From Sedimentisphaeraceae bacterium JB056 (GTDB lineage Bacteria > Planctomycetota > Phycisphaerae > Sedimentisphaerales > Sedimentisphaeraceae), in the NCBI GenBank assembly GCA_044440125.1, contig JBITAJ010000003.1, forward strand, positions 96,001 through 160,000: 64,000 bases of DNA, written 5' to 3'. The notes below the pieces were generated by a model. The model worked only from the letters and a program-made list of their open reading frames with translations. It made no database searches and was not told where the DNA came from. Below are positions 1 to 64,000 of this stretch, piece after piece; position 1 is the first letter of the stretch, and each line of letters opens with the position of its first letter. Position numbers and translations under genes: made by a program.

Positions 1-1298
1 AAACCAGTACCAATAGCAACATATCCTGAAGATACATAACCGGTGCTGCCGCTGCAAGAACCTTCAAGAACATAATCTACGTACAGTTTATAGTTCCCCG
101 AGTTATCAGATGTAACTGCAACATGATGCCACATATCATCATCCACTACAGTACTGCCGCTAATAACATTGCCTCCAATATTAAGAACTACTCCTCTCGT
201 ACTTTCATCCCAGCAGATTGAATAACCGTTGCTTGTTGTATAATCTTTGCAGATCATATAATTTGCAGTAGAAGAGTCGGCGCTTGCACCATCTACTTTC
301 ATGAAAAACTCTATGGTCTTGGTACAACCAAAGTTCCATATTGCAGAGTTTGCAACCTGTATTTCATCATTACCGGAACTAAATTCCATTGACAAAGAAG
401 AAAAATCTTTAGCTGTATAAGTAGTATAAGCTGGCCCACCAGCAGTACTTGTAGTAACAGTACCATCATAACTGCCTGATATATTATCAATATGATCACT
501 TGTAGTCGGAGCCAATCCGGTAGATCCACTGCCGTCTGAGCCTTTCTCGAAATTATAGCAAGCAACAGGCAAAACAGGTAAAGACTGAAAACTGCCACTA
601 CTCAATACCGTATCTGATATTTTAATATCATCAACAGAACCGTTCAATCCGCGAGCCTCCATCCATCCATAACCACTGCCAATCGTTACATATCCGCTTG
701 AGACATACCCCGTACTGCCGCTGCCTGAAACATCAAGATTATGATCAACATATAGATTATAAGAACCTTGATTATCCGACGTAACAGCAATATGATGCCA
801 TGCACCGTCCAAAAACCCAATATCACTGCTGCCTGAAAGTGTGAGACTACCTATAGTAAAATTAACACTGTCATCAGATTCATCCCAATAACAGATATAG
901 CCATTATTAACCGTATAATCTTTTGCAAAAATTATCTGCAAATCTGAAGGATCAAGCGTCTTACCATCAATTCTTACATACATTTCAATAGTTTTAGCAC
1001 TTCCAAAATTCCATACAGCATTATTAGCTATATAAAGACTCTCATCTTGAGGACCAAACTGCATGGAAAGAGAAGAACCGGAATTTGCATGGGCTGTAAT
1101 ATATTTTGGACCTACAGAAGTAGCAAGACCTACGGAAGCATCATTGCTTCCAACCGTATCATCTACTGTATGATTTAACCCGACAACATACGCACCGCCA
1201 CTACCATTAGAACCTTCTTCAAAATTATAGACAGCAACAGTAGAGCTCCAAACAACAGAACATAAAACAAACATAAAGAAAATGTAGACAGACTTCAT
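1..1298 (-). CDS. Secreted protein with at least 2 tandem LamG/ConA-like domains (module-1 subtype); 3' end runs off the window
   Basis: Not in the ORF track because it has no stop in the window. ATG at 1298 follows CAGGAGG. My translation: MKSVYIFFMFVLCSVVWSSTVAVYNFEEGSNG...WHHIAVTSD...IGSGYGWMEARGLNGSVDDIKISD, then a second copy CYNFEKGSDG...WHHVAVTSD. Confidence 0.88.
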   Translation of the reverse strand, partial: MKSVYIFFMFVLCSVVWSSTVAVYNFEEGSNGSGGAYVVGLNHTVDDTVGSNDASVGLATSVGPKYITAHANSGSSLSMQFGPQDESLYIANNAVWNFGSAKTIEMYVRIDGKTLDPSDLQIIFAKDYTVNNGYICYWDESDDSVNFTIGSLTLSGSSDIGFLDGAWHHIAVTSDNQGSYNLYVDHNLDVSGSGSTGYVSSGYVTIGSGYGWMEARGLNGSVDDIKISDTVLSSGSFQSLPVLPVACYNFEKGSDGSGSTGLAPTTSDHIDNISGSYDGTVTTSTAGGPAYTTYTAKDFSSLSMEFSSGNDEIQVANSAIWNFGCTKTIEFFMKVDGASADSSTANYMICKDYTTSNGYSICWDESTRGVVLNIGGNVISGSTVVDDDMWHHVAVTSDNSGNYKLYVDYVLEGSCSGSTGYVSSGYVAIGTG

Positions 1299-1359
1299 CT
1301 GTGCCTCCTGAAAAAAAATTAGAAAGTTAGAAAACAACCAAGCTTATTTTGAAATGGAC

Positions 1360-1397
1360 AAAAAAATATCGACAGCTTTTTTACAAGCTGCCGATAT
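1360..1397 (-). terminator. Rho-independent terminator or attenuator after the PEP-CTERM gene
   Basis: Minus strand ATATCGGCAGCT-TGTAAAAA-AGCTGTCGATAT followed by a T-run. Confidence 0.75.
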
Positions 1398-1403
1398 GAT
1401 ATT

Positions 1404-2195
1404 TTATTTTTTGCGTCTGCGAATCAGAATCCCACCCAAACCAAACAATGCTATTGTTGCAGGCTCAGGAATAAACTCATTAGTAGAAAGAACACTATCA
1501 GTTATACGGAATTCATCAATGGCTCCGCTAAAGACTCGCTGATCCTGCCAGCCGTAACCTTTTCCGACAGAGAATGCCGCACTTGTAACCGAACCGCTGC
1601 CGAAACCGTCAAGCGATCCTGCAAGTTCATAATCTACATAAAGATCATAATGAGCCGAATCAGCCGCATGAGTTACCGCAACATGATGCCACAGAGAGTC
1701 AGTGAATACCGAAGAACTTTCTATAGTTTCACCTTGTATTTGAAACCTTATGCTCCCCGCACTTCTGTTAAAAGTCATTTGCCATCCACCTGATGATGTA
1801 TAACCTTTACTCATTATAAACTCGGTAGTGCTTCCGTCGGGGCCGTTGCCGTCTCTGCGGACAAAGAATTCCACTGTTTTTGAGGCATTCTCCGACCACT
1901 GAAAATCAGCATCATTTCCGAAATCAACAGAATTCTGCTTCTGCCCGAATTCAAGAGCAAGATTTCCTGATGCCAGAGGTGAGACACTGTCTCCATATCT
2001 GGGATACCCGTTTACACTTGTTACAGTGCCGTTGCTCGAACCATAGCTATCTGTTACCCAACCCGAAGTTGTAGGAGCAGAACCAATGGCCCCATTGCCA
2101 TCGGAGCCTTCTTCGAAAGTATAGTAAGCGGCACCATTAACCAGGCTTACTGCTGCCAACAACAATACACAATTTCTATAAATAACATTCTTCAT
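1404..2195 (-). CDS. PEP-CTERM sorting-domain protein with a single LamG-like domain
   Basis: Signal peptide; YYTFEEG...WHHVAVTH...GKGYGWQDQRVFSGAIDEFRI; C-terminus IPEPATIALFGLGGILIRRRKK. Start moved to ATG 2195 (AGGAGG upstream). Confidence 0.92.
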   Translation of the reverse strand: MKNVIYRNCVLLLAAVSLVNGAAYYTFEEGSDGNGAIGSAPTTSGWVTDSYGSSNGTVTSVNGYPRYGDSVSPLASGNLALEFGQKQNSVDFGNDADFQWSENASKTVEFFVRRDGNGPDGSTTEFIMSKGYTSSGGWQMTFNRSAGSIRFQIQGETIESSSVFTDSLWHHVAVTHAADSAHYDLYVDYELAGSLDGFGSGSVTSAAFSVGKGYGWQDQRVFSGAIDEFRITDSVLSTNEFIPEPATIALFGLGGILIRRRKK

Positions 2196-2206
2196 AATTG
2201 CCTCCT

Positions 2207-3838
2207 TTATGGCCAAATATTATCCTGATTCCATTGAGATGCCATCAAAGCAAAGTCATCCAATGTAACCATATAGTCTCCTGTAAGATCACCTTCCTGC
2301 TCACCCATTGGGCGACGAACATAAACTCTGATATCATCAATATAAATTGTGCCTGTTCCAGCATTACCTGTTGCTATTAAAGAAATATTCTGAATATTGG
2401 TAAGATCAACACCATTATAAAGACTTAGATCAATATTCATTTCATTCCACAAACCATCAGTAATATCGGCAAAACCAGAGTAGGTTACTGCTGAAGAATT
2501 AGTTCCATCTGATAACTCTACTTCAACATCTACAGAATCATTACTTACAGGTGCAAGTACATATATTGACATAGACTTTATGCCGTTATCCTGCCAGTTA
2601 GTATAGGAAGGAACAAAAGAAGCAATAGATGTGTCAGATGCTGAAGCTAAATCATAGACCATCTTAAGCCCTCTTTCACCATCATTATAGACATCTTCAT
2701 CTATGGACGCCAAATCTGATGACTGAAGATTATTAGGATCATCCTGTGATATAGTCCAACTTGTTTCGAGAGCAGCTTCATCAGCATAAGATTCAAAATC
2801 CTCAAGCACTACATAATCAGATGTTGTAAAACTCCATACATCGCCTGTCCATGGGCTGTCTTGAGACGAAGAGTTTACAGCATCAATTCTCCAGTAATAT
2901 GTAGTGGCAGGTTTGAGTACTGGTGTAGTCCAGGACAATGAACTTGTCTCTGTCTGGTAAGCAAGTGAGTCAGCAGAAGTTCCAAAATATACAGAATGTG
3001 TAACCGCAGAACTACCCGCTATCCACTCAAGAGTAGGAGTAAGCCCTGAAACAACAGTCGTATTACCCGGCTTAGGGAAACTTGCTGTTTCGATCTCTAC
3101 CTTAAGGAATTCAAAAGTAGACAATGCTGTATCAGAAAATCTCACCTCATCAATATAACCATTGAATGAACGCAATGACTGCCATCCGTATCCACTACCG
3201 ATATATAGAGGACCTTCGCTTACCGAACCAGAGCCATATCCGCTCAGTTCAGCCTCTTTTCTATAGTCAACAAACAGCTCATATGTAGCAGAATTAGCAG
3301 CATGAGTAACAGCTACATGATGCCAGCCGCCATCAGTAAAATCAGTAACACTGCTGATTATATGATTTCTTATACGGAAATTCAGCAAACCTGTATTACG
3401 GTTAAAATACATATCCCAGCCATTTGTAGTCCCATAGTCCTTAGACATCACAAACTCTGTTGAACTTGGATCAAATCCATTACCAGATCTACAAACAAAG
3501 AATTCAACAGTCCTGGAAGTATTCTCAGAAAATTGGTAAATACTTGAGTTACCTACTAATACATAACCACCTTCAGTACTGAACCGCAACGATGTGCTTC
3601 CCGGAGCAGAGACAGAAGATTCCGTAGAATACTCGGGAGAGGATAAGCTCAAAACAACAGTCCCATTATTATCCGAGTTGATAGAATCCAAAACCCAATC
3701 ATCAGTTTCCGGTACCGTGCCAACAGCACCATTTCCATCAACGCCCTCTTCAAACATGTAATACGACAGCGTAGTTGCCGCAACAGGCATGCTTATTGAT
3801 ACCATAATAATACTTATTACTAATAGAAATCTATACAT
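2207..3838 (-). CDS. Secreted LamG + Fn3/Ig-like + CBM-like beta-sandwich protein with C-terminal dockerin-like tail
   Basis: LamG motifs; TTYYWRIDAVN...GDVWSFTT (Fn3-like); VLEDFESY...IYIDDIRV (CBM-like); tail GDLTGDYMVTLDDFALMASQW. Start likely ATG 3838 after GGAGA. Confidence 0.85.
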   Translation of the reverse strand: MYRFLLVISIIMVSISMPVAATTLSYYMFEEGVDGNGAVGTVPETDDWVLDSINSDNNGTVVLSLSSPEYSTESSVSAPGSTSLRFSTEGGYVLVGNSSIYQFSENTSRTVEFFVCRSGNGFDPSSTEFVMSKDYGTTNGWDMYFNRNTGLLNFRIRNHIISSVTDFTDGGWHHVAVTHAANSATYELFVDYRKEAELSGYGSGSVSEGPLYIGSGYGWQSLRSFNGYIDEVRFSDTALSTFEFLKVEIETASFPKPGNTTVVSGLTPTLEWIAGSSAVTHSVYFGTSADSLAYQTETSSLSWTTPVLKPATTYYWRIDAVNSSSQDSPWTGDVWSFTTSDYVVLEDFESYADEAALETSWTISQDDPNNLQSSDLASIDEDVYNDGERGLKMVYDLASASDTSIASFVPSYTNWQDNGIKSMSIYVLAPVSNDSVDVEVELSDGTNSSAVTYSGFADITDGLWNEMNIDLSLYNGVDLTNIQNISLIATGNAGTGTIYIDDIRVYVRRPMGEQEGDLTGDYMVTLDDFALMASQWNQDNIWP

Positions 3839-3900
3839 TTTTATCTCCATATTGTTTAGCTTAATTTTAGTTAAATTAAATAACAGTCAAACGTATACTC

Positions 3901-5541
3901 TTACGGCCACAATGTTGTATCAGCCCAATTGTCCACTATCACACTAAGATCAAGTATATCAACACGGCAGTCACCATTCATGTCAGCACTAAGAGCTTCT
4001 GTACAAATGCCCTGCAGTATATTAACATAATCAACATAGAGATACCCAGTACCGGTTGCATTAGTCAGAGAAATTGTAAGACCCTGTACATCTGTAAGAT
4101 CTAAGCCAACAAAATCATCAAGACTGACATATACAGCATGCCACTGGCCATCATTCAGAGAAGAAGAGTCTTCATATAAAACATCCACTGTCTGAGCAGA
4201 ATCGCTTATTGAAACGATAATATCAGCATCAACACTGCCAGCTTCGAACATAGCATAAAAGCTTAAAGCTCTTACATCGTCAACGGTCCAATCTGTAACA
4301 GCAGGAGAAAAAGAAGTAGATGAAACATCGCTTGTATCAGCAAGATCATAAGCTATCTGCATACCTTTATCGCCTGAATACAAGGTAGTAGCTCCAACAG
4401 CAGAATCAGATGACTGAAGATTGTTAGGATCAGCATCGCTGAAAGTCCAGGCAGCATCTATAGCACTCTCATCAGCATAAGACTCAAAATCATCAATAAC
4501 TATTAAACTTTGAACTGTAAAACTCCAAACCTCACTTGTCCATGGGCTTTCTGGATACGAATCGTTTATTTCGTCAACTCTCCAGTAGTAAGTTTGTCCA
4601 AGCTCAAGAGCAGGAGAATATTCATTTACAGAAACCTCTCCCATATATTCGTCTGAAACCTCTGTAGCATTCAATACCGCTTCATAATCAGTCCCAAGAT
4701 ATACCTTGTGAGTCAATGCAAAATCACCGGATGTCCAGCTCAATGTAACATTGTTAGCAATATTCTGTGAACCATCAGCCGGCTGTGGAGTATAAGCTGC
4801 AGTTACATTTCTGTAAACAAAATCGGCAGGAATCAATACTTCATCTGATATTCTGATATCATCCATAGCACCATTGAATACACGTTGATCCATCCAACCA
4901 TACCCTTTACCAACCAAGAGTGTTGGAGTTGTAACGGAACCGCTTGAAAAACCGGTTATTTCTGCTTCTTTCTCGTAATCAACGTATAATTCATATATTC
5001 CAGAGTTAGCCTCATGTGTAATGGCAACATGATGCCATACCATATCTTCAAATGAAGTAGTACTTTCCATTACAGCACTTTGAACCTGAAATCTTATGGT
5101 CTTAGCTGTGCGGTAGAAATATATTTGCCAACCGCCTGAAGAAGTATACCCCTTACTCATAATAAACTCAGTTGTACTTCCATCAGGGCCATTGCCATCG
5201 CGACGGATATAGAACTCAAGAGTTTTTGAGGCATTTTCCGACCATTGAACGGCTGCTGAATTAGGTATAGTAATACCGTTGTATTTAGCAGCAAACCTCA
5301 TACCCAAACTTCCCATAGAACGAAATGCAACAGTATCAATATAGGCAGGGTAACCACCACTTACTGCCGCTGTAGCATTATTACTGCCTGCAGAATCAAG
5401 GACCCAGCCAGATGTTGTCGGAGCTGTTCCAGTTGCACCAAGACCATTAAAACCTTCTTCAAAATCATAATATGCAACCGTCCCGGCAAAAAGCATAGTG
5501 CTTAGAACAGAAGATAACAAAATTGCTAACTTAAATTTCAT
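3901..5541 (-). CDS. Paralog of 2207..3838: LamG + Fn3-like + CBM-like + dockerin-like tail
   Basis: Same architecture and shared DPNNLQSSD motif; tail CTEALSADMNGDCRVDILDLSVIVDNW. Start likely ATG 5541 (MKFKLAILL) after GGAGA. Confidence 0.85.
   Translation of the reverse strand: MKFKLAILLSSVLSTMLFAGTVAYYDFEEGFNGLGATGTAPTTSGWVLDSAGSNNATAAVSGGYPAYIDTVAFRSMGSLGMRFAAKYNGITIPNSAAVQWSENASKTLEFYIRRDGNGPDGSTTEFIMSKGYTSSGGWQIYFYRTAKTIRFQVQSAVMESTTSFEDMVWHHVAITHEANSGIYELYVDYEKEAEITGFSSGSVTTPTLLVGKGYGWMDQRVFNGAMDDIRISDEVLIPADFVYRNVTAAYTPQPADGSQNIANNVTLSWTSGDFALTHKVYLGTDYEAVLNATEVSDEYMGEVSVNEYSPALELGQTYYWRVDEINDSYPESPWTSEVWSFTVQSLIVIDDFESYADESAIDAAWTFSDADPNNLQSSDSAVGATTLYSGDKGMQIAYDLADTSDVSSTSFSPAVTDWTVDDVRALSFYAMFEAGSVDADIIVSISDSAQTVDVLYEDSSSLNDGQWHAVYVSLDDFVGLDLTDVQGLTISLTNATGTGYLYVDYVNILQGICTEALSADMNGDCRVDILDLSVIVDNWADTTLWP
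4952..5160 (-). repeat. Copy A of a 209-bp inverted repeat inside a LamG coding region
   Basis: Reverse complement matches 7033..7241 with 12 mismatches by manual alignment. Confidence 0.9.
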
Positions 5542-5591
5542 ACTTGTCTCCATTAAAAAAATAACATTAAAAAGGCGCAAACTGCCTACCA

Positions 5592-6329
5592 CTATTGTCT
5601 ATCTTTTACATTTGACAAAAATCTGTCAAGACTGTAACCCACGACCGCCGGATCAACTTCAACTCCTTTAGATACAGAGCAATCAGAGAACGCAACATTC
5701 AAATCACCATTCATGGCATTATCACTATTTTCATTTGCTCCAGCGGCAACACTGGCAAAATGATTCCAATAGAAATTCATACCAGCTGTGTAGCCTTTTT
5801 CGTCAGAAATCAATGGCTTTGATGCATCAGAGAGCCTCAATGCTCGTTTCATAGGAGTTCTCGTTCCGTTATAGCAAGCAAGGAAATTATAGCCGATGCC
5901 TCTGCCCTGCCATCCCACTTTCTCTGGGGACCAGTCAGCTTTATTTTCTGCATCAAATTGCCTGTGCTTATCAAGCGGACAATAAAAAACAGTAGGATCC
6001 GACACATAACCTGGATATAACAAACTTAAATACAAATTAGGCCTGCAGAAGAAGCCTCCGAATTCACCCCAGTTCTCAGATGAAGATGTGCCTGTCCACC
6101 AATCTTTACCATCGGTCCTTCCAGTATAAATAAATTTACCATCGTAGTCTGCCGCGTATACAGCATTACCTAAAACAGATTGCCTTACATTATTGGCACA
6201 GATATTCAGCTTTGCAGATCGCCTGGCTTTTCTTAACGACGGCATCAGAACCGACATAAGCAAGGCAATTATCGATATGACCACAAGTAACTCAATTAGA
6301 GTAAAAGCTTTACGCCATTGTCTTTGCAT
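5592..6329 (-). CDS. Prepilin-type N-terminal cleavage/methylation protein (DUF1559-like), module 1
   Basis: KAFTLIELLVVISIIALLMSVLMPSL..AR; FYCP; degenerate C-terminal NH...LNVAFSDCSV. Confidence 0.9.
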   Translation of the reverse strand: MQRQWRKAFTLIELLVVISIIALLMSVLMPSLRKARRSAKLNICANNVRQSVLGNAVYAADYDGKFIYTGRTDGKDWWTGTSSSENWGEFGGFFCRPNLYLSLLYPGYVSDPTVFYCPLDKHRQFDAENKADWSPEKVGWQGRGIGYNFLACYNGTRTPMKRALRLSDASKPLISDEKGYTAGMNFYWNHFASVAAGANENSDNAMNGDLNVAFSDCSVSKGVEVDPAVVGYSLDRFLSNVKDRQ

Positions 6330-6375: not shown

Positions 6376-6404
6376 AGTGTAATAAATAAAAGACATATTG
6401 TCAA
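6376..6404 (-). promoter_or_regulatory. Sigma70-type promoter for the leftward pilin/LamG operon
   Basis: Minus strand TTGACA (6404-6399), 17 bp, TACACT (6381-6376). Confidence 0.6.
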
Positions 6405-6588
6405 CTTAAAAATACAACTTATCACCAAAAAAAGATATGATATTTGGGGACATCCTAAATGTTTTAAGAACAAATTAACCACATAAACGTATAAAAAACA
6501 AGGTTTTAACTTTAACAAATCTTATTAAAAACTATTTTTCTTAAATCTGACAAAAATAGACAAAGCAAAGATATCTTGTATTTTTTTG

Positions 6589-6634
6589 TTTACAAGTGAT
6601 AAAGAACATGATATCATCACATCTCAGATGTAAT
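6589..6634 (+). promoter_or_regulatory. Sigma70 promoter with extended -10 and an overlapping palindromic operator candidate
   Basis: TTTACA (6589-6594), 17 bp, TATCAT (6612-6617) preceded by TGn; palindromes ATGATATCAT (6608-6617) and ACATCT-C-AGATGT (6619-6631). Confidence 0.6.
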
Positions 6635-6660: not shown

Positions 6661-9600
6661 ATGAAGTTCTTCGGATGGCTTGTATTATTTCTCTTGTCCG
6701 TACATTCTGTTATTTTCGGCAACACGATAGCTTTCTACGACTTCGAAGAAGGCTCAGACGGCACTGGAGGCACGGGGACTGCACCGGCACAGACAGGATG
6801 GGTATCAGATTCAGCAGGAGACAATCATGGAACACCTTATATATATGGAGACAAACCATACTATATTAAAAGCCAGGAATCAAATTTAGCTCTTAGTTTT
6901 GGAGTTGCCAAAAACGCAATCCAATTCAACAACTCAAGCGTATTCCAATGGCCGGAAAACTCATCTCGAACTATTGAATTCTTTATCCGCCGTGATGGCA
7001 ATGGTTCTGACGGCAGCACGACGGAATTCATTATGAGCAAGGGATATGCTTCTTCAGGCGGTTGGCAAATATATTTTTACCGTACAGCTAAGACCATAAG
7101 ATTTCAGGCTCAAAGTGCTGTAATGGAAAGTACTACTTCATTTGAAGATACGGTATGGCATCATGTTGCAATTACACATGAGGCTAACTCTGAAACATAT
7201 GAATTATATGTTGATTACGAAAAAGAAGCAGAAATAACCGGATACAGCTCAGGCTCAGTTACAAGCGCCGCTTTTTTTGTTGGCAGAGGCTACGGATGGC
7301 AGGAACTCAGGGTATTCAACGGAGCAATAGACAATATCAGGATATCTGATCAAAACTTATCGCCAGAGCAATTCCAACAATTGAACACTGACCTTCTCCT
7401 ATCTTTCGAAGAAGGTACTGACGGCTCAGGTACACAAGGCCAAGCCCCTTCTGACGCAGGCTGGATTGTAAGCACATATAACCCTGCAATAGCCTCAGCA
7501 ACTGCCTCTCCTGGTGGAGAAGGACCTATTTACAGCCATTACAATGAAACCCAATTATGCATGGAATTCACCGGCAACACCGCTGATTACATAACAATAC
7601 CCGACTCTGATATAATAGATATTTCAGAAGAGGAAAACATCACTATTGAACTATACTTCAAAGTTCTGAACGAAAATTTTGTCTCAAGTCCTCTAAATTG
7701 GCTAATGTGCAAAGGCTTCACTGACAGTTCAAGTAATGGCTGGGGAATATACTGGAACGAATCTGATGACAAGATCACATTCAATATCTCAGGACAATCC
7801 GTCACTTCTCAAACAACAATAAATGATGGATACTGGTATCACTTTGCTATTACGCATGAGGCTTCAACCGGAATTTACAACCTTTATATAGACCATCAAT
7901 TTCAGGGCAGAATAGAATCCAGTTATTCGGGAAGCCTTAATTCCGAAGACCTGATAATAGGCCGCGGATGGGACTGGCAGTACAATAGAGACTTCATAGG
8001 CAGTATAGATGAATTCAAGATCAGCAGCGAAGTATATAACGAGCAGCAATTCATGCCGTTGCCTGTAAAACAAATAGATCTTACGACACGAGTCAGTAAT
8101 CTCAACAAACTGGCAGAAAAACTCGAAACTGCGGGACAGCTTGACTACTACGGAAATATGAGAAACAAGCTTGTTCAAAAATTCTTGCCTTATATTGAGA
8201 CTCTTAACCAAGACGGAAATACTGAACTGGCCGACTATGCCGAGGCGGATATCGAAAGAATAACAACGGAAGAAACAAGCCGACTCGGTGCTATACTAAA
8301 TGGAGAGCTGCCCCAGACTTATACTCCCAGAAGAGTTGCAGACCAAATGCCTGTTCATACTAATGGGCATCTCCAACAGCAAGTTCAATGGCCTGATAAT
8401 ACGACAGAAACAAGACCCGTATTCCTATACGGCTTCTGCGCTGAGCAACAAAACTTCCGTCCGGATGCCGAATTCATCGGCAACGACCTCGGCTGTAATT
8501 ATCTTCAGGTATTTACCGGACCAAGGTATGTCATGCCGGACGAATCAATGTGGGATACAGACAATCCATCACAAAGCACACTGGATGCCGGAGTTATTGG
8601 AAGCTACCAAAGCGCAATAGCAGATGCCTACAACAACGGTATAATAACTGACCTCAACATCTCGCCTCACTGGATACAAAATTGGTTCATAGACAATCAC
8701 CCAGAATACTACGCTGATCTCGGTGGATTTATGAAATACACGCTGAATCAAGCCGAAGTAAAAGAAATAATCGGCTGGTCAAGCAGGCTGCTCATCGAGG
8801 AGTTAAGTACCCAAACAGGTTTGTGGTCGTGCTGCATAATGAACGAACCATGTTATTTCCGATGGACAGACGACCCGGACACTTCAAGTTTATGGACAAA
8901 TTATCTACAGAACTTCTACAGTAATAATATCGCCACTGCAAACTCAAACTGGGGCAAATCGTATTCATCATGGACAAATATAACCCAATACCTTTATCCC
9001 CCGTCAACACCATATCCGGCATACCCGGAGCTATACGACTGGATGAAATTTAACGATACGCGAATAAGAGACTGGGCATTGTGGCTGCAGACTTACGTCA
9101 AAGCGGCAAACAGTTCACTTTATACTCACATAAAACAGAATAACAGGTTTTATACACAATTCAACGTTATGCAGGGCAGCGACATTGATCTTCTAAGCAA
9201 ATGTACAGATTTACCCGGCACAGACGTAGGACTTTACTCATGGAACCCGTCATCACCTTCAAATACTGAGCTTTACGGCGTATCATCAACGCTGCCAATG
9301 ACAACGCAGAGAACCGTAACGGGACGACCGATAATCAATTCAGAAAACCATATACTCAGAGACAACAACTCTGAACCAATAGAACAAGGCCATGTAAGGG
9401 CCAGTATGTGGCTTCAGGCACTATCAGGCATGGACGCTATGAGTGCATGGATTTGGGGATATGACCCTACAGATGAATTATCAACAGGACTCTGGAAAAA
9501 TCGTCCCGGGGCAACCGAAGAACTGGCACGAACAGGTATGGACCTAATGAGACTGATGCCGCAGATTGTCGAATTCAGAGAAAAGCCTGCAGAGGTTGCT

Positions 9601-16572: not shown

Positions 16573-17607
16573 TCAACAATCTCTGCACCCCTCAATGATC
16601 TCTATTAATCTTCTTGACTCTTCAATACCAACAAAAGGTTTCTGATTGCAGGCGAAATATTCGTAACATTTTTGATAATAATCAACAGGTTCAAAATCAG
16701 AGAGTCTGAATTCCTGAAGCCGCCACGGTATCTTTTCTCCATTAGTGTAACATCTGCCCTCTGCTGCAAGTTCTTTATTTATAGAAACGTTCTTTAGTTC
16801 TTCAGGCATAAAGTATTTAACTCGCCAAACATTTGAACTCTCATCAAGCACAGCACTGCCGCAACTTCCTAAAACCATCCACGGACGCATCTCAAAGGCT
16901 GCAGCCATATTTATATCGATATCAAGAATTATGCCGTCTGATGTTTCGAAAACAACCTTAACAACATCATCGGCATCTCCAAGACATGCTATGTTTTTAG
17001 TAATACATTGCGTTGAAACAATATTGCTTCCAGCAAGATAAAGTAGTTGATCTATGTAGTGTGCCCCATAATTATTCAGCATTCCGCCTCCATTAGACAA
17101 AAATGCCTGCCAATCATTACGTCGTCTGAATTCACTGCAGGCTCGCTTTATCATGTATATATCGCCAAGAACTCCTGATGATATTATATGCTGAAGCCCC
17201 ACCATATCACTGAAACCTCTATGAGGCTGATATGCCATAAATTTACGATTCAATCGTTTTTGAGCACCAATAATCTGATCTATCTCTTTTGTAGAAGGGG
17301 CTACAGGTTTTTCACAGAAAACATCACTGCCATGTTCAAATGCCTCGATGGCCTGTTTACAATGAAACTTTGTAGGAGAAGCAATAACAACCAAATCAGG
17401 CTTTTCAGTCCTAAGCATTTCGCTGTAATCAACATAGCCTTTGACAGTGAAAGTTTCCCGGGCTTCCAGAAGTCGTTCTTTCAAAGGATCAACAACAGCA
17501 ACAAGCTTGAAGCTGTTATTTGATATTATTTGCGGCAAATGATATTGCCATCCGATTCTGCCTAAACCAACCACTGCCGTCCTTAGCTGTCTATTATCAT
17601 GCTGCAT
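16573..17607 (-). CDS. Gfo/Idh/MocA family oxidoreductase
   Basis: VVGLGRIG Rossmann motif, VFCEKP, GGMLNNYGAHYIDQ. Confidence 0.93.
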   Translation of the reverse strand: MQHDNRQLRTAVVGLGRIGWQYHLPQIISNNSFKLVAVVDPLKERLLEARETFTVKGYVDYSEMLRTEKPDLVVIASPTKFHCKQAIEAFEHGSDVFCEKPVAPSTKEIDQIIGAQKRLNRKFMAYQPHRGFSDMVGLQHIISSGVLGDIYMIKRACSEFRRRNDWQAFLSNGGGMLNNYGAHYIDQLLYLAGSNIVSTQCITKNIACLGDADDVVKVVFETSDGIILDIDINMAAAFEMRPWMVLGSCGSAVLDESSNVWRVKYFMPEELKNVSINKELAAEGRCYTNGEKIPWRLQEFRLSDFEPVDYYQKCYEYFACNQKPFVGIEESRRLIEIIEGCRDC

Positions 17608-30445: not shown

Positions 30446-30459
30446 CGTTAAAAAGCAAT

Positions 30460-51129: not shown

Positions 51130-51186
51130 AAAAGCCTCCATAAAAATGAAAATTATATAAAATTTAGTTGAGCGGTTGCAAGTCTC

Positions 51187-53028: not shown

Positions 53029-54557
53029 TTCTGTAGCAATTGATAAATTTCTGTTTTAAACTTTTCAACCTGCGTAAAATCGGCAGTATAATCAACAGGA
53101 CCTTTATATATTTGTTCTAATACCTTTTCGGCGGCATCTCTGCCTTTGAATATTTCCAGAGCCCTGAGATATTCGTAATCTTCCACGCCGTCAAGCCAGC
53201 GTTCAAGCCTCACTGATGCAAGCGGTCCCTTCGTTCCGTAAAACTCTCCCGGATAAACTAACAAACCGTCACCATCAGGTAACCCCTTACGAAAAGCCAT
53301 TTTATCAGGCTGATTCGCATCAACAACAAAGCTATTTACTGCCCAGTAAAGGAAGCCTGTGCCGCCATCTTTCCACACCCGCCATAAAACCGCGCGGTTG
53401 TTGTACGGCGACTGCTCAAGAAGGTAGTTGGGTTGTTTCTCGCCCGGTCCGCAACAGACATAAGTCCACCACTCTTGATCGTTTTCGAGAAGCTCTTTAG
53501 ATTTAACAACATTCTCCTCTTTTATTTTCAAAGCCCATGAGCTCATGCAGAATATCTTCGTATGCTGATCCCATAAATCATAGACAGCAAATAAATCATC
53601 CTTACGCTCTCCTTCTTTAGGGCCACAATAGAAGGTCGTTATAATATTTGCATCTGAATCAAACTTGTGCAGCCTTGCCGCGTTTTTATCAAGGTCATCA
53701 TAATCCTTCAGATTGGAAGGTTCATCAGATATATAGAAATATCCCTTATCGTAATACCCCTGATACTTAGCAGTCTTTATCATCTCATCAAGCTTCCGGT
53801 CGTCAAGGGTATAAAAAGGCAATGCAATATCAGTAAAACGCGGATCAGAGAACAACTCTACAGTTCTTGGATCATCCATCGGCCATGGAGAAGAATACGC
53901 TTCATGCTCCTGCCTTGTAAGCCAATCACAAAGATACGGCGATATGCGATAATCAAGCAGAAACTTTATCCAGCCTTCCATCGCCTCCCTTTTCTTGTCC
54001 TGATCATCAATTTTGAGTATCTTAGTAAACATGTCTGCCCTGATACCGAAAACAGCGGGCAAAGAAGGTTTCAGCGGCAGCACAAGCTCATTTACATTGA
54101 CAGCAACCGGAATAACTTTCTTTTCATCTCCGCAAAATACAGAGATTTTATCATCATAATTGCCCGGTTTGGCAGTTAATGAAGCATGATACGTAAACCA
54201 AAGCTTTATTACACCCGACTCACTTGAAATTCTGCTTCCTGCAGGTACAAGAACATCGTCATAATCACCGACTTTTTCAATTTTACGGCATTTAAATTCC
54301 AGCTCCTTACCGGCTCGCTTTACCACGATATCCTTTTTGCCTTCAGGAAGAGTCACCACCATCTGAAAATGTTCATACTCACCGCGTGCGAGATTCAATT
54401 TAATATCAGATATTCCTGAAAGCTCTTTATAATCAAAAACATTCGACAAACTATGCAAAACCTTACACTGCAAAGCTGTCTGCTGTGCAATACAAAATCC
54501 AACACAACACAAAACACAAAAGACAATAGTCAAAAATCTTTTCATCGTAAAACCCAT
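53025..54557 (-). CDS. DUF4091/GH123-like glycoside hydrolase (putative N-acetylhexosaminidase)
   Basis: ARGEYEHFQ, YISDEP, WTYVCC.P, GFLYW, GDGLLVYPG, SVRLE...DGVEDYEYL. Start 54557 or 54545. Confidence 0.82.
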   Translation of the reverse strand: MGFTMKRFLTIVFCVLCCVGFCIAQQTALQCKVLHSLSNVFDYKELSGISDIKLNLARGEYEHFQMVVTLPEGKKDIVVKRAGKELEFKCRKIEKVGDYDDVLVPAGSRISSESGVIKLWFTYHASLTAKPGNYDDKISVFCGDEKKVIPVAVNVNELVLPLKPSLPAVFGIRADMFTKILKIDDQDKKREAMEGWIKFLLDYRISPYLCDWLTRQEHEAYSSPWPMDDPRTVELFSDPRFTDIALPFYTLDDRKLDEMIKTAKYQGYYDKGYFYISDEPSNLKDYDDLDKNAARLHKFDSDANIITTFYCGPKEGERKDDLFAVYDLWDQHTKIFCMSSWALKIKEENVVKSKELLENDQEWWTYVCCGPGEKQPNYLLEQSPYNNRAVLWRVWKDGGTGFLYWAVNSFVVDANQPDKMAFRKGLPDGDGLLVYPGEFYGTKGPLASVRLERWLDGVEDYEYLRALEIFKGRDAAEKVLEQIYKGPVDYTADFTQVEKFKTEIYQLLQK

Positions 54558-56367: not shown

Positions 56368-57117
56368 TTAATAATTGTAAAAATGATATTTAAATCTTGC
56401 CGGTCTGCATATACCATACTCAATCTGCTCTTCTTCAGGTTCGGCAAATTCTATATGTCCATCAACAAAAGAGAAATTGCTTCCACCGGAGTGCCTTAAT
56501 GTATAGCAGTTGTTGTCATTAGGAACAGGCATATTATTGGCCCATCGCCATGTATAAATAGACCATGTTGACTGAATATCAGCCATTATTACCGTATTAC
56601 CGGGATTTTCGATCTTAGCTATCTTAATCGGCTTTGAGTAAAAAGATGAAGCAGGCCAGCGAACCATAGGCATATCAGGCTCATCAATATTTGATGTGCC
56701 ATCATTCATGCCTATAGCTATGCCATGCCCCGGCTTAATTGCATCAGCGTTACTGATCTCAGCTCTCTCGCTTGATGGGCAAGACCATATTCCCTTGCTG
56801 TATCTCAGATTGTCTATTTCGCCTCCAAGATAGCCATTATCTTCAAGGGTGTAAACCCAGTCATCGCCTGCTTCCCAAGCATTGCCATCCTCATCAATAT
56901 CTTCATGCGGCACTGGATATACTCCATTGCTGGCATCAGCGTATGCATTTAATGCTAAAGACATGCTTCGCTGATTACTGCTGCAAAGCGTCTTCTTCGC
57001 CTGCTCTCTAACCTTTGTCAGTGCCGGCATCAGTATTGACATCAGGACTGCAATAATAGATATTACAACAAGCAACTCTATAAGCGTAAAGCCTTTGGTC
57101 TTTTTAAAATTCTTCAT
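56368..57117 (-). CDS. Prepilin-type/H-X9-DG protein (DUF1559-like), module 4
   Basis: KGFTLIELLVVISII; WSCPS; RHSGGSNFSFVDGH. Confidence 0.93.
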   Translation of the reverse strand: MKNFKKTKGFTLIELLVVISIIAVLMSILMPALTKVREQAKKTLCSSNQRSMSLALNAYADASNGVYPVPHEDIDEDGNAWEAGDDWVYTLEDNGYLGGEIDNLRYSKGIWSCPSSERAEISNADAIKPGHGIAIGMNDGTSNIDEPDMPMVRWPASSFYSKPIKIAKIENPGNTVIMADIQSTWSIYTWRWANNMPVPNDNNCYTLRHSGGSNFSFVDGHIEFAEPEEEQIEYGICRPARFKYHFYNY

Positions 57118-57141: not shown

Positions 57142-58053
57142 TCAGCGTATATCCAGACAGTTTTCTCCACCAGGCTGCGTACATAGGAGCCAGTTTGTTA
57201 CAAAAAGCTGGAGATCCTGCAAATTCACATAACAATCTTTATTAAAATCACCGGCATAATATCCATTCTCGCCACATTCAGCCATAGGCAACGCGGCATC
57301 CTGATACACCTTGAGATTATCTATATAGTATTCACCGTCTGTCGGAACATTAACAGCATAGAAATCTATATTGCCTATATAACCCTGCCAGTAATCCCAT
57401 GTACCGTACCAGTAATCATCACCGGTAATCTCTTCATCATCAATATAGATCCGAAGACGTGGTTTGCTCGGTCCTGTTCCATATTCAGGCTGGAGCATAT
57501 ATATCTTAACATTGTACCACGGTGCAGTAGATGTTTTATCGTACTGCCCAAGATTAGCCCACGCATTGGCCGCCTCAGGACTTCCCTTTCTTGCTGTAAG
57601 TCCCCAGTTACCAACCTGCGGCATCAATGTAAGCTGAACAACACTGTCAATTGCGCGATTAACCCTCATGCCGCCATAAACATTGCCCTGCTGATACATA
57701 TCGAATTCAAGAAGTACATTAACATCACGTGGAACCGGTACTTTTGAAAAATCACCGGTAAAACCAAGATTAAGTTTTAACTGAGAAGTTCCACCGTCTG
57801 TTCTCGGAATAAACGATAAGACATTACCGCGACCATCATGAACCCCGCCAACGCTGCTGAGATCAACAACTGCCCCGGCTTCGTAAGGCTGTCCATAAGG
57901 CTTAACCCACAGATTCTGACCGTTGATATCACCGGTTGTAAACGACTCGAATCCCTGTGAATCGTAAACCATAACCGTATCGGCCGTATTGGGATCAAAA
58001 CAATACCCCAAACCATAACACAAAAACAAAATTGCCAAAACTGTTTTATACAT
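57142..58053 (-). CDS. Secreted beta-sandwich (lectin-like) protein with Cys-type dockerin-like tail
   Basis: GFESF..G.INGQ..W...YYIDNLKV; tail CGENGYYAGDFNKDCYVNLQDL...NWLLC. Confidence 0.78.
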   Translation of the reverse strand: MYKTVLAILFLCYGLGYCFDPNTADTVMVYDSQGFESFTTGDINGQNLWVKPYGQPYEAGAVVDLSSVGGVHDGRGNVLSFIPRTDGGTSQLKLNLGFTGDFSKVPVPRDVNVLLEFDMYQQGNVYGGMRVNRAIDSVVQLTLMPQVGNWGLTARKGSPEAANAWANLGQYDKTSTAPWYNVKIYMLQPEYGTGPSKPRLRIYIDDEEITGDDYWYGTWDYWQGYIGNIDFYAVNVPTDGEYYIDNLKVYQDAALPMAECGENGYYAGDFNKDCYVNLQDLQLFVTNWLLCTQPGGENCLDIR

Positions 58054-58094: not shown

Positions 58095-59105
58095 TTACAG
58101 TTTACCGGTTGATTCACGAACAACCAGTTCACCTTCAAATAACGTATTTTGCGATTCTACAGACTCACTGGATATCCTGTTTATAAGCAATTCAGCAAGC
58201 TTCTGCCCTATTTGTTCAGTAGGCAGCCTGTATGTTGTCAGAGGAACTTTAAGCTTACTCGAATACCAGCCGTCATTTACACCTGTAACAGAAACATCTC
58301 CCGGCACATCATATCCGGCATTCATTAAATCCATCACTAATTCCGATGCCAGATCATCATTGTAAGCACATATCGCCGTGGGTCTTTGCTTGAACGACAT
58401 CGCTTCTTTTCTAAGCTGAGTAATATCCTGCCTGATATAATCAAGCTCGAAAACAAGCAGAGGCTCATATTTAACATCAAACTCAGCAAGCGCCTTACGA
58501 TAACCTTCAAGCCTGAGCTGTTGTCTTTCATCCGCAAGACTCATCAATGTAAAAGCAATCCTGCGATGCCCAAGTTCAAGTAAGTGCTTGGTTGTCTCAT
58601 AACCGCAAGGAAGAAAATATTGATCTACAGTATCAATACCTTTTATATCACGGCAGTGCCCAAGCATTCCGACATATCCGCCACTATCTACGTATTTCTG
58701 TATTCTCTCAACAACCTCCGTTGAAGACGGCACATAATCAATGATCAAGCCGTCTGCTCCACGACCGATAATATCGTTAATTGCGGATAATTCGACTTCC
58801 TTGTTTCCGTGAGTTACTACAAGCAGAGGTGTATATCCCTGATCCTGCATCCATCTCTCCTGTGCTCCCATGCAATCAATAACAAACGAATCGCGGAGCT
58901 TAGGCACTAATACGCCTATAGTCTTAGTGCTTGCGCCTGCAAGCCCCCTTGCCATCAAATTTGGAACATAATTGAGAGACTCGGCAATTTGCTTGATGCT
59001 GTCTCTTGTCTGGGCGGAAATCTTAGGGTTGCCGCGAAGAGCAAGAGATACTGTCGAGGTATGAACACCTGCTTTTTCTGCTATTTCTTTTAAACTTGCT
59101 GCCAT
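58095..59105 (-). CDS. LacI-family transcriptional regulator (module 4)
   Basis: SLKEIAEKAGVHTSTVSLAL..YVPN..ARGL; GHRRIAF; VPGDVSVTG. Confidence 0.96.
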   Translation of the reverse strand: MAASLKEIAEKAGVHTSTVSLALRGNPKISAQTRDSIKQIAESLNYVPNLMARGLAGASTKTIGVLVPKLRDSFVIDCMGAQERWMQDQGYTPLLVVTHGNKEVELSAINDIIGRGADGLIIDYVPSSTEVVERIQKYVDSGGYVGMLGHCRDIKGIDTVDQYFLPCGYETTKHLLELGHRRIAFTLMSLADERQQLRLEGYRKALAEFDVKYEPLLVFELDYIRQDITQLRKEAMSFKQRPTAICAYNDDLASELVMDLMNAGYDVPGDVSVTGVNDGWYSSKLKVPLTTYRLPTEQIGQKLAELLINRISSESVESQNTLFEGELVVRESTGKL

Positions 59106-61310: not shown

Positions 61311-63268
61311 TGGCTCAAGTTGACAAGATGAATAATATTAATATTAAAACAGACACAACAGAAAATTGCTGGGAAATAGAATCAGCAATTTTCTGTTTAA
61401 GAAATTTAAGCAGTGGGTTAATAGTAAAAGGACAAACAGAAAAGCTTAATTTAATACAATCAGAACATAACAATAATGCATATATTTTAAAATTCGAAAA
61501 TGATAATGCGGTTCTGAAATTAATGGTTTTAACACAAGAAGACAAGCTTATACTTGAAAGTGAGCTTCAGGCTAAGAAAGATATTTATATAGACTCTGTT
61601 GCTTTAGCTCAGATAGATAAAGAAATTACAAACCAGGATATAGAACTCGGCGACAAACTGGAGAATTACAGAATACTCATTAACTCAGATAATTCATGGG
61701 GGAAAACGGGCAACTGCCCTTTACTGCCCTCGCAAAGAAAAAAATCAAAGGGCGACATAAGAAGCGTAAAAGGCGGCATGGTAACCGCTATATGGTCTAC
61801 GATAAATTCTCGAGCATTACTTATAGGAACTGCCGAAGAAAGCAATTATCCATTAACCTATCTCTGGACAAAACCCCAAAACCATTCTCAGGCAGGGTTT
61901 TCTCTTTACAAGAGTATTGGAACAAACCTTAAACAAGATAAAGTATACCAACTTGGCAAAGTTGTTTTTTCCGGCACTAAAGATATCACATCTGAACTTG
62001 AAGCCTATGCTGAAAACTATTTCAATTTTGATTCAAAAACTGACAAAAAAATAATTGGCTGGAGCAGCTGGGACTACTATCTTGCCAACCCCAAAATGAT
62101 TGACATACAAGAAAACATAAATTCAATCAAAAACAACAGCTATCTTAAAGGTAAAATTAATCTTATAAGTATTGATTTGGGATGGTCAAAAATTGAAGGA
62201 GACTGGCGAAGCAATATTGATTTTCCAAAACATAGGGAAAATATTGCAGATTATATTCACTCAGAAGGCTTCAAAGCCGGAATATGGACAATGCCGTTAG
62301 TTGTTTCACCATTCTCAGACATTGCATGCAGAAAACCAAAATGGCTTATAAAAGATTCTGATGGATTCCCTGTAAATGTAAACAAAGGACAATATGATGA
62401 TGCCAAGTTTTCTCTTGACCCTACAATACCACAGGTAAGCAGTTACATTTTCGATCTTTACAGAACATTAAAAGATGAAGGATTTGAGTACTTCAAGCTT
62501 GATTTCCTCCGTCAATCATGCCGTTTCCCTGAGTATTCACTTTTTGACAAACAAATAACGAGAACAGAGATGCTCAGAAAAATGATAAAAACGATAAGAA
62601 AAGCTGTTGGCAAAGATTCTGTTATCTGCGCTTGCGGAGCACCTTTCGAAGCAGTTCAAGGTCTCGTAGACTATATCAGGGTATGCGATGATGTAAAAAA
62701 TCACTGGAGCAATATACAAAGATCTGCAAGATCAATAATACACAGATTCTGGTCTCATAAGAGGCTGTGGAATATTGACAGTGATTTTCTTATAGTAAGA
62801 GGAAGTGAAACCGCTGATATCAGCGAAGACCGCTTTATAACTTACCACAACATCACTCACGAACCATTTCACTGGCTCTCAGGCAAAACTTTGTCTGAAA
62901 ATGAGGCTAAAGTATGGGCAAGCATCTGCGTTATGACAGGTTCATGTCTTATTCTCGGGGACAGAGTAGAAAAACTTAATCCCCGCGGTCTCGAGGTCAT
63001 TAAACAAGCAATAGAAAACCAGAAAGAAAGCTTTTTCAGACCACTTGATCTTGAAGTTTCATCAATGCCATCCATTTGGCATCGATTCGACAATAACGGC
63101 AACGAAATGTACGCATTTTTCAATTTCACTGAAAAATCAAAAGAAATAGATCTTAATAAATACAATATTGCAGGCGATTTTGAAAGTATCTGGGAGTCAA
63201 ATTCAATAACCACCCCAACTACTTTGATAATTCCCTCGCGAAATGTAGTATTGCTGAAAAAAATATAA
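61310..63268 (+). CDS. GH36/clan GH-D-like glycosidase
   Basis: GWSSWDYY, IDLGW..GDW, AGIWTMP, LDPT.P, YFKLDFL, IRVCDD; TAATG coupling with the upstream gene. Confidence 0.85.
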   Translation: MAQVDKMNNINIKTDTTENCWEIESAIFCLRNLSSGLIVKGQTEKLNLIQSEHNNNAYILKFENDNAVLKLMVLTQEDKLILESELQAKKDIYIDSVALAQIDKEITNQDIELGDKLENYRILINSDNSWGKTGNCPLLPSQRKKSKGDIRSVKGGMVTAIWSTINSRALLIGTAEESNYPLTYLWTKPQNHSQAGFSLYKSIGTNLKQDKVYQLGKVVFSGTKDITSELEAYAENYFNFDSKTDKKIIGWSSWDYYLANPKMIDIQENINSIKNNSYLKGKINLISIDLGWSKIEGDWRSNIDFPKHRENIADYIHSEGFKAGIWTMPLVVSPFSDIACRKPKWLIKDSDGFPVNVNKGQYDDAKFSLDPTIPQVSSYIFDLYRTLKDEGFEYFKLDFLRQSCRFPEYSLFDKQITRTEMLRKMIKTIRKAVGKDSVICACGAPFEAVQGLVDYIRVCDDVKNHWSNIQRSARSIIHRFWSHKRLWNIDSDFLIVRGSETADISEDRFITYHNITHEPFHWLSGKTLSENEAKVWASICVMTGSCLILGDRVEKLNPRGLEVIKQAIENQKESFFRPLDLEVSSMPSIWHRFDNNGNEMYAFFNFTEKSKEIDLNKYNIAGDFESIWESNSITTPTTLIIPSRNVVLLKKI

Positions 63269-63282
63269 ATAGGAGCTTTAAT

Positions 63283-64000
63283 ATGTCATTAAGTATTCTG
63301 GACTGGACTGTCCTTCTAACACTATTTGTCCTGCTGAATTTATCAGGCTATTTGTGCCGTAAATATATCAAAAACGTAAGTGATTTTCTTGTCGCCGGAC
63401 GACATGTCGGCAGATATTTAGGCTTGGGGTCAGATTCAATGGCGGGCTTGGGGGCTGTTACAATGCTTGCCTTCTGGCAGATGATATACAAATCAGGCTT
63501 CAGCGGCCTATGGTGGTATATACTCTCACCAGTAGCAGGTATTGCCGTTGCTCTGACAGGCTGGGGAGTTTGCCGGTTTCGTCAAACTCGGGCAATGACT
63601 CTGGGACAGTTTATAGAAATGAAATACGGCCGTAAAACAAGGATACTTTTCGGCTCACTTGCCTATGCCGCCGGCGTACTCAACATGGGTATATTCCCGA
63701 TAGTGGGAGCCGGTTTCTTCGTATATTATCTTGGATTCCCTGCTGAACTTCATTTGGCTGGATTCACAATACCTACCACCCTGCCCATTATGCTCGTTTT
63801 AGTAGGCTCGGCTGTTGCCATATGCTTCCACGGCGGACAGGTGACACTCATAATAACAGATTTTCTCCAGAGCGTGTTCGTAAATGTAATGCTTGTTGTA
63901 ATCGTCGTATTCGTTTACAAAATGTTCTCATGGCAGCAGATTAGTGAAACATTCACAAGTGTCGAAAACTCAAAGGCCCTTATTAATCCCTACGCTAAGG
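63283..64000 (+). CDS. Sodium:solute symporter, 3' truncated by the window edge
   Basis: Not in the ORF track. ATG 63283 after AGGAG; MSLSILDWTVLL...VSDFLVAGRHVGRYL...RFRQTRAMTLGQFIEMKYG...GGQVTLIITDFLQ. Confidence 0.9.
   Translation, partial: MSLSILDWTVLLTLFVLLNLSGYLCRKYIKNVSDFLVAGRHVGRYLGLGSDSMAGLGAVTMLAFWQMIYKSGFSGLWWYILSPVAGIAVALTGWGVCRFRQTRAMTLGQFIEMKYGRKTRILFGSLAYAAGVLNMGIFPIVGAGFFVYYLGFPAELHLAGFTIPTTLPIMLVLVGSAVAICFHGGQVTLIITDFLQSVFVNVMLVVIVVFVYKMFSWQQISETFTSVENSKALINPYAK

Follow-up and report, generated by a model that had tools for sequence, protein, structure and literature searches.

A 64,000-nucleotide stretch of the genome of Sedimentisphaeraceae bacterium JB056 (the window; C3:96001-160000 of genome G000, 4.54 Mb, 99.8% complete) was found to carry four sugar-related loci, modules 1 to 4, each with a type IV prepilin gene next to genes for proteins that end in a dockerin-like tail. 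The computations covered the coupling of genes, the domain make-up of proteins, co-divergence, the context of riboswitches, the machinery encoded, and folds. The results showed that this pilin-linked cassette was real and that it stood behind cobalamin (B12) riboswitches where btuB normally stands. The cassette very probably serves nutrient capture of some kind. There is an even chance that the pilin takes the place of SusC/BtuB, acting as a minor subunit with substrate specificity in a shared retractile type IV filament that would import the caught nutrient.

Pfam searches covered 33 open reading frames (ORFs) of the window and NCBIfam searches 18; genes are named here by their first coordinate (Table 1). 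All four prepilins (5592, 26301, 41789, and 56368) lay on the minus strand, matched N_methyl/TIGR02532, and carried a class III signal with a basic leader, Gly or Ala at -1, Phe at +1, Glu at +5, and a hydrophobic helix. A preliminary description of this DNA had assigned all four to the DUF1559 type. The four prepilins were present, but PF07596 (DUF1559) matched only 26301 and 56368, and TIGR04294, the model of the H-X9-DG motif, matched only 56368, with just a degenerate C-terminal motif in 5592 and 41789. The dockerin-like tail was found on 10 window genes, and, as had been proposed, the gene immediately downstream of the pilin in each of the four modules was a tail gene on the same strand (3901, 23998, 38192, and 54649). 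The proposed order of regulator, tail-bearing lectin(s), pilin, tail-bearing enzyme, and untethered enzymes was also found in modules 2-4 by Pfam. Module 1 differed, in that the pilin was the first gene of its operon and the same operon held a gene for a LamG domain with a PEP-CTERM signal (1404), which the preliminary description lacked. Polysaccharide utilization loci (PULs) of the SusC/SusD type combine a tandem TonB receptor and SusD with a co-located regulator, glycan enzymes, and surface binding proteins. The latter three features were present here and the tandem pair was not: no TonB receptor, SusD, or ATP-binding cassette (ABC) transporter family matched among the 33 scanned ORFs. The only transporters, as previously stated, belonged to the SSS family: a complete Kelch-SSS fusion (31370-33835) and an ORF (63283-), truncated by the window end, that was recognized by eye as SSS-like. 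From the enzyme families, the likely targets are a sulfated uronic polysaccharide for module 2, sialic-acid-like sugars for module 3, and N-acetylgalactosamine (GalNAc) glycans for module 4; the module 1 enzymes resembled glycoside hydrolase (GH) families GH42 and GH167.

A simple ORF caller gave 3338 genes in G000, which were searched with our own hidden Markov models (HMMs); these had 0 matches on reversed proteins. The tail HMM rested on a 28-residue core and gave 0 decoy matches, whereas an iterated HMM drifted into LamG domains. The searches yielded 205 tail genes and 89 pilin matches, and 26 PEP-CTERM genes were recognized by their motif. Ten pilin matches were dropped, eight in core type II secretion system (T2SS) or type IV pilus (T4P) loci and two (C9_9 and C17_68) that were not N-terminal prepilins, leaving 79 orphan pilins. 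A same-strand tail gene was found beside 50 of these 79. Such a neighbour was present for 6.4% of genes other than these pilins and for 12.0% in a set of 727 signal-peptide-like genes. In 5000 local shuffles, the count averaged 26.1 and never exceeded 39. There was no side preference across the genome (tail gene downstream of 29/79 and upstream of 31/79), and a pilin directly upstream of its tail gene is a property of this window, not a genome-wide rule. Within 8 genes of a pilin lay 43 of the 49 LacI/GntR regulators (background 32%). In relatives, adjacency was seen for 7/10 pilins in G001, 4/11 in G003, and 10/25 in other families, counted in regions around the top-listed pilin matches and not in a random sample. 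The suspected coupling of pilin and tail thus held both genome-wide and lineage-wide. Outside the order Sedimentisphaerales, in 76 loci of other Planctomycetes-Verrucomicrobia-Chlamydiae (PVC) genomes, it was found for only 3/89 pilins, which is a lower bound because our HMM missed the GC-type dockerin of G063 and because gene calling was noisy in high-GC loci. One 324-residue prepilin, C11_39 (L167:7168-8142), had no tail or PEP-CTERM gene within five genes and is a candidate shared or major subunit.

The tail was homologous to true dockerins (E 4.9e-10 to 2Y3N; fold Z 6.7-7.0), with the Ca-loop consensus D-x-N-x-D-x-x-V-x-x-x-D. Among the 205 tail genes, 147 had one match, 57 had two, and one had three; in the window, 8 of the 10 tails were single by eye. 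A cysteine was located inside the Ca-loop in 85 of 133 regular tail cores. Cohesin PF00963 had 0 matches in G000 and a match in only 1/31 genomes, although a divergent cohesin may escape this model, which left the 205 tails without a known receptor. The only cohesin matches, in G001 (L248/L249), were two domains in one 2069-residue frame. NF041540, the GC-type dockerin anchor, did not match any of the 10 window tail proteins at E 0.1 and did match the B12 partner protein of G063. The tail cores were weakly locus-specific, with the best match in the same locus for 7.6/104 against 1.5 expected, in a coarse test on 21-residue cores. The PEP-CTERM gene 1404 and the tail gene 3901 had a LamG domain in common (56% identity). 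The tail thus appears to be an all-purpose anchor at the cell surface that PEP-CTERM can replace.

When the tails were masked, each window module had a domain of its own that its members had in common and that hardly occurred in the other three. Identity within a module was 42-64% in module 1 (including the PEP-CTERM protein), 58-63% in module 2 (27097 vs 23998), about 30-35% in module 3, and 26-36% in module 4. Genome-wide, the best match was within 10 genes for 83/160 anchored proteins, where 1.9 were expected. Three tethered enzymes carried the private domain, and their untethered twins did not (6661/10600, 23998/22458, and 38192/33862); the domain occurred without a tail in 14726, in 48901, and in the gene cut by the window start. 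Read from these alignments, specificity would lie in the module-private LamG/jelly-roll domain and not in the tail. The idea that the tail was the pilin's specific partner was not borne out, since tails were weakly locus-specific where the domains were strongly so, the same domain occurred with PEP-CTERM, and adjacency was scarce outside the order. The pilin heads correlated with the non-tail part of their anchored neighbours (rho 0.51 for 70 pilins; permutation maximum 0.11) and hardly with untethered neighbours (rho 0.12), and similar pilins went with similar partners in 28 of 31 locus pairs. The closest paralog of pilin 26301, C18_38, was flanked by genes matching 27097 and 23998. Some cassettes were kept while the flanking enzymes changed, as seen in C15_50 compared with C15_222 and C22_61. 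A homolog search for 57142 gave 2 relatives besides itself; the structural look-alikes of its domain included clusters with type IX secretion system (T9SS) tails, as would be expected of a binding domain whose anchor can be exchanged. Among 94 longer pilin relatives, none had a tail, and one pilin-LamG, one LamG/PEP-pilin, and one carbohydrate-binding module (CBM96)-pilin frame were found; this fusion search is weak evidence because the pilin motif was internal in 67/94, possibly by read-through. A LacI/GntR-type repressor ran in frame into the prepilin in 9/94 (P0124, P0126, P0130, P0133, P0136, P0138, P0149, P0160, and P0182). Read-through could have produced these frames artificially, or they may encode polyproteins that prepilin peptidase cleaves.

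The cassette had been described as serving glycans. This fits the window but is too narrow for the genome, where the cassette also appears to serve B12 and probably metals. The similar pilins C16_49 and C1_18 led to DUF4465, a B12-binding family according to the available text of PMC13398666. Both cobalamin riboswitches of G000 headed operons of tail protein(s) and a pilin, and not the one TonB receptor of the genome. In 30 relatives, 31/40 cobalamin riboswitches, in 28 genomes, had a pilin among the first five co-oriented genes; all 40 matches were fetched, and the two genomes without a pilin operon had cut contigs. The corresponding background was 74/964 operon starts in G000. A tail protein was present in 30 of these 31 operons, a PEP-CTERM gene in 22, and DUF4465 in 9. 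The remaining switches of the relatives headed nrdD/metE, lone DUF4465 or PEP-CTERM genes, or (G007) cob genes and a TonB receptor. In a phylum sample (40 of the 74 matches listed were fetched, in most cases the top one of a genome), a TonB receptor was headed by 7/40 riboswitches, and no riboswitch headed both a pilin and a TonB receptor among the genes scanned. In three phylum genomes, the B12 pilin was followed only by a gene of 120-139 residues, with BtuF next in G087; BtuF also came after the pilin in G014 and G007, and was at a separate locus in G000, where CbiC had no match. The tail partner in the B12 operon on C16 folds like BtuH (7BIZ, Z 12.7, root-mean-square deviation (rmsd) 3.5, 175 aligned; next unrelated row 9.4) and resembled part of BtuG1 (Foldseek E 5.4e-6 to 8BLW_B), which suggests a putative B12 binder. 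For 29 pairs, leaving out four pilins and three partners that were unpaired or non-homologous, the pilin-head and partner-domain trees shared the same 13-row clade across families. The partner tree was built without a mixture model and carries a long-branch warning. Mantel correlations were 0.63 for head and domain, 0.38 for head and tail, and 0.11 for head and family. This agreement shows joint inheritance and not contact. A complex prediction for the B12 pilin head and tail partner (score 0.01, mark 0.32) gave no answer and is not evidence either way. A ComF-like gene (double zinc ribbon and phosphoribosyltransferase) was found directly after the B12 pilin in 6 scanned relatives (L177, L181, L186, L189, L201, and L204). 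Inspection of alignments by eye showed that the strongly divergent pilin in the B12 operons of L192 and L201 went with a partner whose sequence type differed.

Some of the other cassettes in G000 may concern metals. On C29 (L166:4054-11769), feoB, DUF2023, a PEP-CTERM protein, a 483-residue secreted protein, a pilin, a ChaN-like haem-uptake protein, and a CbiX-like gene formed one run, which is likely an iron/haem version of the cassette. On C1 (L156:9156-11564), a tail-pilin-tail trio came right after the B12 operon; both partners had His-containing N-termini, no Pfam or NCBIfam match was found, and the trio possibly captures metal. On C22 (L165:8135-18894), a cassette had a pilin close to those at C3_54 and C29_258, and with it were genes for cytochrome c maturation, multicopper oxidase domains, a subtilase, and a multiheme cytochrome that bore a tail.

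All 79 orphans had Gly or Ala at -1, Phe or Tyr at +1, and Glu at +5, a count that is partly circular because the HMM was seeded on that motif. The model of 56368 (predicted local distance difference test score 78.8) had a long helix (12-62) and a β-sheet head, the lollipop fold of type IV pilins. Its best structural match was PilA4 (Z 5.7, rmsd 3.6, 123 aligned), and the top 19 rows were pilins or pseudopilins. The matches listed included PDB 5HZ7, Neisseria ComP, a DNA-binding minor pilin. No binding-protein fold was present among the 50 matches listed, and Foldseek gave no match at E<=0.001. Named homologs of this pilin included Sedimentisphaerales and other planctomycetes. The machinery looked for in G000 was found: prepilin peptidase (one match), one exosortase, six secretins, a T2SS on C16, and two PilT-bearing T4P-like loci, one with a PilQ-like secretin on C27 and one, PilB-PilT-PilB-PilC with four pilins, on C15. 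The orphan-helix HMM gave 50-53 bits for three C15 pilins, 35.8 for the C27 pilin, and 11.7 for GspG. SusD had no match in G000, and a TonB receptor match was absent in 10/31 genomes of the lineage. The suggestion that the cassette replaces SusCD stood in part: no SusD was matched and the cassette occupied the btuB position behind B12 riboswitches, but the results did not support the tail as the pilin's specific partner.

A mechanism can be proposed in which we infer processing, assembly, surface location, ligand binding, and retraction-driven import. A local repressor, or a riboswitch for B12, would control one orphan type IV pilin and several exported proteins, each of which would join a binding domain private to the module to a generic anchor, either PEP-CTERM or the cohesin-less dockerin-like tail. 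At the surface, glycan would be bound and trimmed by the tethered lectins and enzymes. After cleavage by the single prepilin peptidase, the pilin would enter a shared retractile type IV filament as one of its minor subunits; the machine that assembles it is most likely PilB-PilT-PilB-PilC on C15. The variable pilin head may recognize the substrate or the loaded binding domain, and retraction would bring the substrate through a secretin into the periplasm, where the untethered twin enzymes and SSS (or BtuFCD) transporters would finish the process. With a substrate-specific head and retraction through a secretin, the pilin would fill the slot of the TonB-dependent transporter (SusC/BtuB). A wider proposal is tentative and falls somewhat short of an even chance. 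In it, planctomycetes and other PVC bacteria would import nutrients across the outer membrane by a general route that does without TonB. A single retractile type IV filament machine would take in dozens of exchangeable pilins, every one encoded in a separate regulon for its nutrient (glycans, B12, or metals), and each pilin would receive its ligand from cognate surface-anchored binders and pull it through a secretin.

Three other explanations have to be weighed. The pilin might be a pseudopilin-like export adaptor that reads the private domain as an address and pushes the cognate proteins out through the secretin, with uptake left to ordinary porins and SSS symporters. The private domain on three tethered enzymes and not on their untethered twins, its co-divergence with the pilin heads, and the complete T2SS in the genome all fit this. 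Yet the orphan helix was closer to the T4P pilins at PilT loci than to GspG, the B12 partner domain had a ligand-binding fold, some B12 pilins in the phylum were followed by nothing but one small gene (and BtuF in G087), and 56/205 tail genes were more than 5 genes from any pilin, so we consider export unlikely. The version in the preliminary description, in which the pilin head substitutes for a cohesin and binds the dockerin-like tail, displaying lectins and enzymes on the filament, appears improbable. It would account for a true dockerin homolog in a lineage where cohesin matched in a single genome, for the tail protein in nearly all B12 pilin operons, and for the head-tail Mantel correlation. 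However, that correlation was below the one between head and domain, the tails were weakly locus-specific while the pilin heads were highly diverse, the same domains occurred with PEP-CTERM, few pilins outside the order had tail neighbours, and no longer pilin relative carried a tail, with the reservation of possible read-through in most of them.

The pilin-like protein might also stay anchored in the inner membrane, bind or sense a solute, and hand the ligand to SSS or ABC transporters, with co-regulation as its sole tie to the surface proteins. A solute-binding function was assigned to DUF1559 without a test in the available text of PMC2754498 and PMC4807772; the LacI/GntR-type-plus-pilin frames and the BtuF genes after the pilin in some operons point the same way. 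Those frames may be artefacts, however, the processing motif was kept in every orphan (with the circularity noted above), the predicted fold matched pilins, with no binding-protein fold among the 50 matches listed, and the passage of B12 across the outer membrane would be left unexplained in the genomes without a TonB receptor match. We regard this explanation as a doubtful one. Apart from display alone, every one of the explanations considered implies some part in nutrient capture.

Several results weigh against import by a pilin filament as well. Co-divergence of heads and domains is also expected because cassettes may simply be inherited and duplicated as units. Adjacency alone fails to single out the pilin, because LacI/GntR regulators adjoined tail genes nearly as often (20/49; sulfatases 10/71). 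No tail or PEP-CTERM gene was adjacent to 26/79 pilins or within two genes of 14/79, and the distant tail genes counted above belong here too. TonB receptors were found in 21/31 lineage genomes, up to 7 each; in G007, both a pilin operon and a TonB-dependent transporter were behind B12 riboswitches, and in the phylum sample only 8/40 riboswitches headed a pilin. The two thiamine pyrophosphate (TPP) riboswitch matches in G000 headed ThiG-like and ThiC-like genes (by eye), not pilins. No secretin was found among the genes scanned at the C15 locus, and the fold scores of 56368 were middling (Z <6).

Table 1. Features of the window by position, with strand.
Position	Strand	Feature	Remarks
1..1337	-	Module 1, 5' part of a 1657-residue gene cut by the window start; 4 LamG and a region like 6661-10413	no tail
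1404..2216	-	Module 1 LamG domain and PEP-CTERM sorting signal	48-57% identical to LamG of 2207, 3901, 6661
2207..3850	-	Module 1 LamG protein	single dockerin-like tail
3901..5592	-	Module 1 LamG protein, directly after pilin	single tail
5592..6329	-	Module 1 prepilin, heads operon	Ala at -1, Phe +1, Glu +5
6398..6595	.	Inverted repeat pair, 26 nucleotides, 81%, divergent promoter region	candidate; possible operators
6661..10413	+	Module 1 tethered enzyme: 2 LamG and GH167-like region	double tail (Dockerin_1, PF00404)
10600..14580	+	Untethered twin of 6661, GH42-like	33% over 748 residues
14726..16468	-	Module 2 polysaccharide lyase (PF14099), module LamG, and immunoglobulin (Ig) domain	no tail
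16573..22380	-	Module 2 untethered enzymes: GFO oxidoreductase, heparinase II/III-like and SGNH esterase, sulfatase
22458..23930	-	Module 2 BNR_4 enzyme, untethered twin of 23998	37% over 517 residues
23998..26304	-	Module 2 tethered enzyme: BNR_4 and module LamG	tail
26301..27068	-	Module 2 prepilin (DUF1559)
27097..28638	-	Module 2 double LamG	tail; 58-63% identical to LamG of 23998
28685..29767	-	Module 2 GntR/periplasmic-fold regulator
30155..30472	-	Remnant (C-terminal fragment) of module-3-type LamG, PF13385	no signal peptide; 37% to 38192
30460..38155	-	Module 3 untethered: DHDPS/NanA-like aldolase, Kelch(NanM-like)-SSS symporter, BNR enzyme (twin of 38192), melibiase-like GH
38192..41758	-	Module 3 tethered enzyme: LamG, BNR (sialidase-like), LamG	double tail
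41789..42730	-	Module 3 prepilin	start probably at MLKRKG
42741-45542, 45599-47254	-	Two module 3 LamG proteins	cysteine-braced single tails
47321..48490	-	Module 3 GntR/periplasmic-fold regulator
48901..54557	-	Module 4 untethered: 48901 (twin of 54649), flavin adenine dinucleotide (FAD) oxidoreductase, GH123	48901: 36% over 518 residues
54649..56346	-	Module 4 tethered protein: predicted GH clan A-like TIM barrel and second domain common with 48901	tail
56368..57117	-	Module 4 prepilin (DUF1559, H-X9-DG)	predicted type IV pilin fold
57142..58053	-	Module 4 small CBM-like protein	tail
58095..59105	-	Module 4 LacI regulator

In module 2, a heparinase II/III-like lyase was fused to a GxDLY/SGNH esterase (17660-20713, minus strand). 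The LamG fragment stranded between modules 2 and 3 may be a sign of domain shuffling or decay. The Kelch-SSS fusion of module 3, on the minus strand, joined a NanM-like Kelch domain with a signal-like N-terminus to the symporter and adjoined the DHDPS/NanA-like aldolase. A fifth sugar locus (59448-64000, plus strand), divergent from module 4, had two melibiase-like genes and the SSS-like gene cut by the window end; CG-centred LacI-like sites were seen by eye beside it, at about 59164, 59315, and 59352. A promoter and terminator scan of 44000-60000 gave nothing above shuffles, Rfam on the window and four loci gave nothing beyond the known B12 switch, and PDB sequence searches with 23998 and 38192 were uninformative.

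The cassette links two open matters, namely how planctomycete polysaccharides pass the outer membrane without SusCD and what DUF1559 does. In the available text of PMC10632474, DUF1559 is the largest paralog group of Planctopirus, with 68 paralogs of unexplained function; PMC5352709 merely mentions it. In other planctomycetes, dextran-gold binds pili-like fibres and dextran reaches the periplasm, by an uptake system for macromolecules called uncharacterised in the searched part of PMC5394234. If a general import route of this kind exists, it would explain what the DUF1559/H-X9-DG family does and which genes underlie this fibre-associated uptake. The B12 version offers a minimal test case, with a riboswitch, a binding protein, a pilin, and a simple growth read-out, and the module-private domains are a source of uncharacterised glycan-binding modules whose targets can be guessed from neighbouring enzymes. 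Pilin, DUF1559, and dockerin were not mentioned in the main text of PMC11685898 as far as it was available. In the literature searched, excluding supplements, none was found that ties these pilins to PULs, dockerin tails, or B12 riboswitches; work on planctomycete paralog and envelope evolution and on Akkermansia MUL genetics may hold a prior description.

The pilin-linked cassette has precedents in the bindosome, MUL2, lectin-bearing minor pilins, and the dextran-binding fibres. The SusC/SusD PULs and BtuB-BtuG/H/J loci of Bacteroidota (available parts of PMC13398666 and PMC8941943) are likewise controlled by regulators or riboswitches and hold surface binders and enzymes, and the partners found here, DUF4465 and a BtuH-like fold, recall the BtuB-type loci. 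Unlike those loci, the ones described here had a prepilin in the place of SusD and the TonB receptor, and their anchors were the dockerin-like tail or PEP-CTERM instead of lipoprotein signals. The cellulosomal cohesin-dockerin system and the proposed "planctosome" share the dockerin homolog with its Ca-loop consensus; however, most tails here were single matches, most regular cores had a loop cysteine, and G000 had no cohesin match, whereas the planctosome needs cohesins and no pilin appears in the text searched (PMC6461901). The Sulfolobus bindosome (Bas; PMC3047682, available text) also joins class III signal peptides and a type IV pilin-like machine to sugar uptake, but it is archaeal, lacks an outer membrane, and has ABC binding-protein folds and few members, whereas the present diderm has about 79 paralogs with a pilin fold, whose anchored partners are separate proteins. 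In Streptococcus sanguinis, the PilA-PilB-PilC glycan-binding tip (PMC9934059, available text) likewise gives a shared filament its ligand specificity through minor pilins. That tip and ComP serve adhesion or DNA uptake with few subunits and with the lectin fused into the pilin, while the lectins here were separate genes with their own anchors. The type IV-like pilus of Akkermansia MUL2, tied to glycan attachment and uptake in a PVC bacterium (PMC13174399, available text), is one conserved four-gene locus, whereas in the present genome the specificity would be divided among dozens of orphan pilins that belong to separate regulons.

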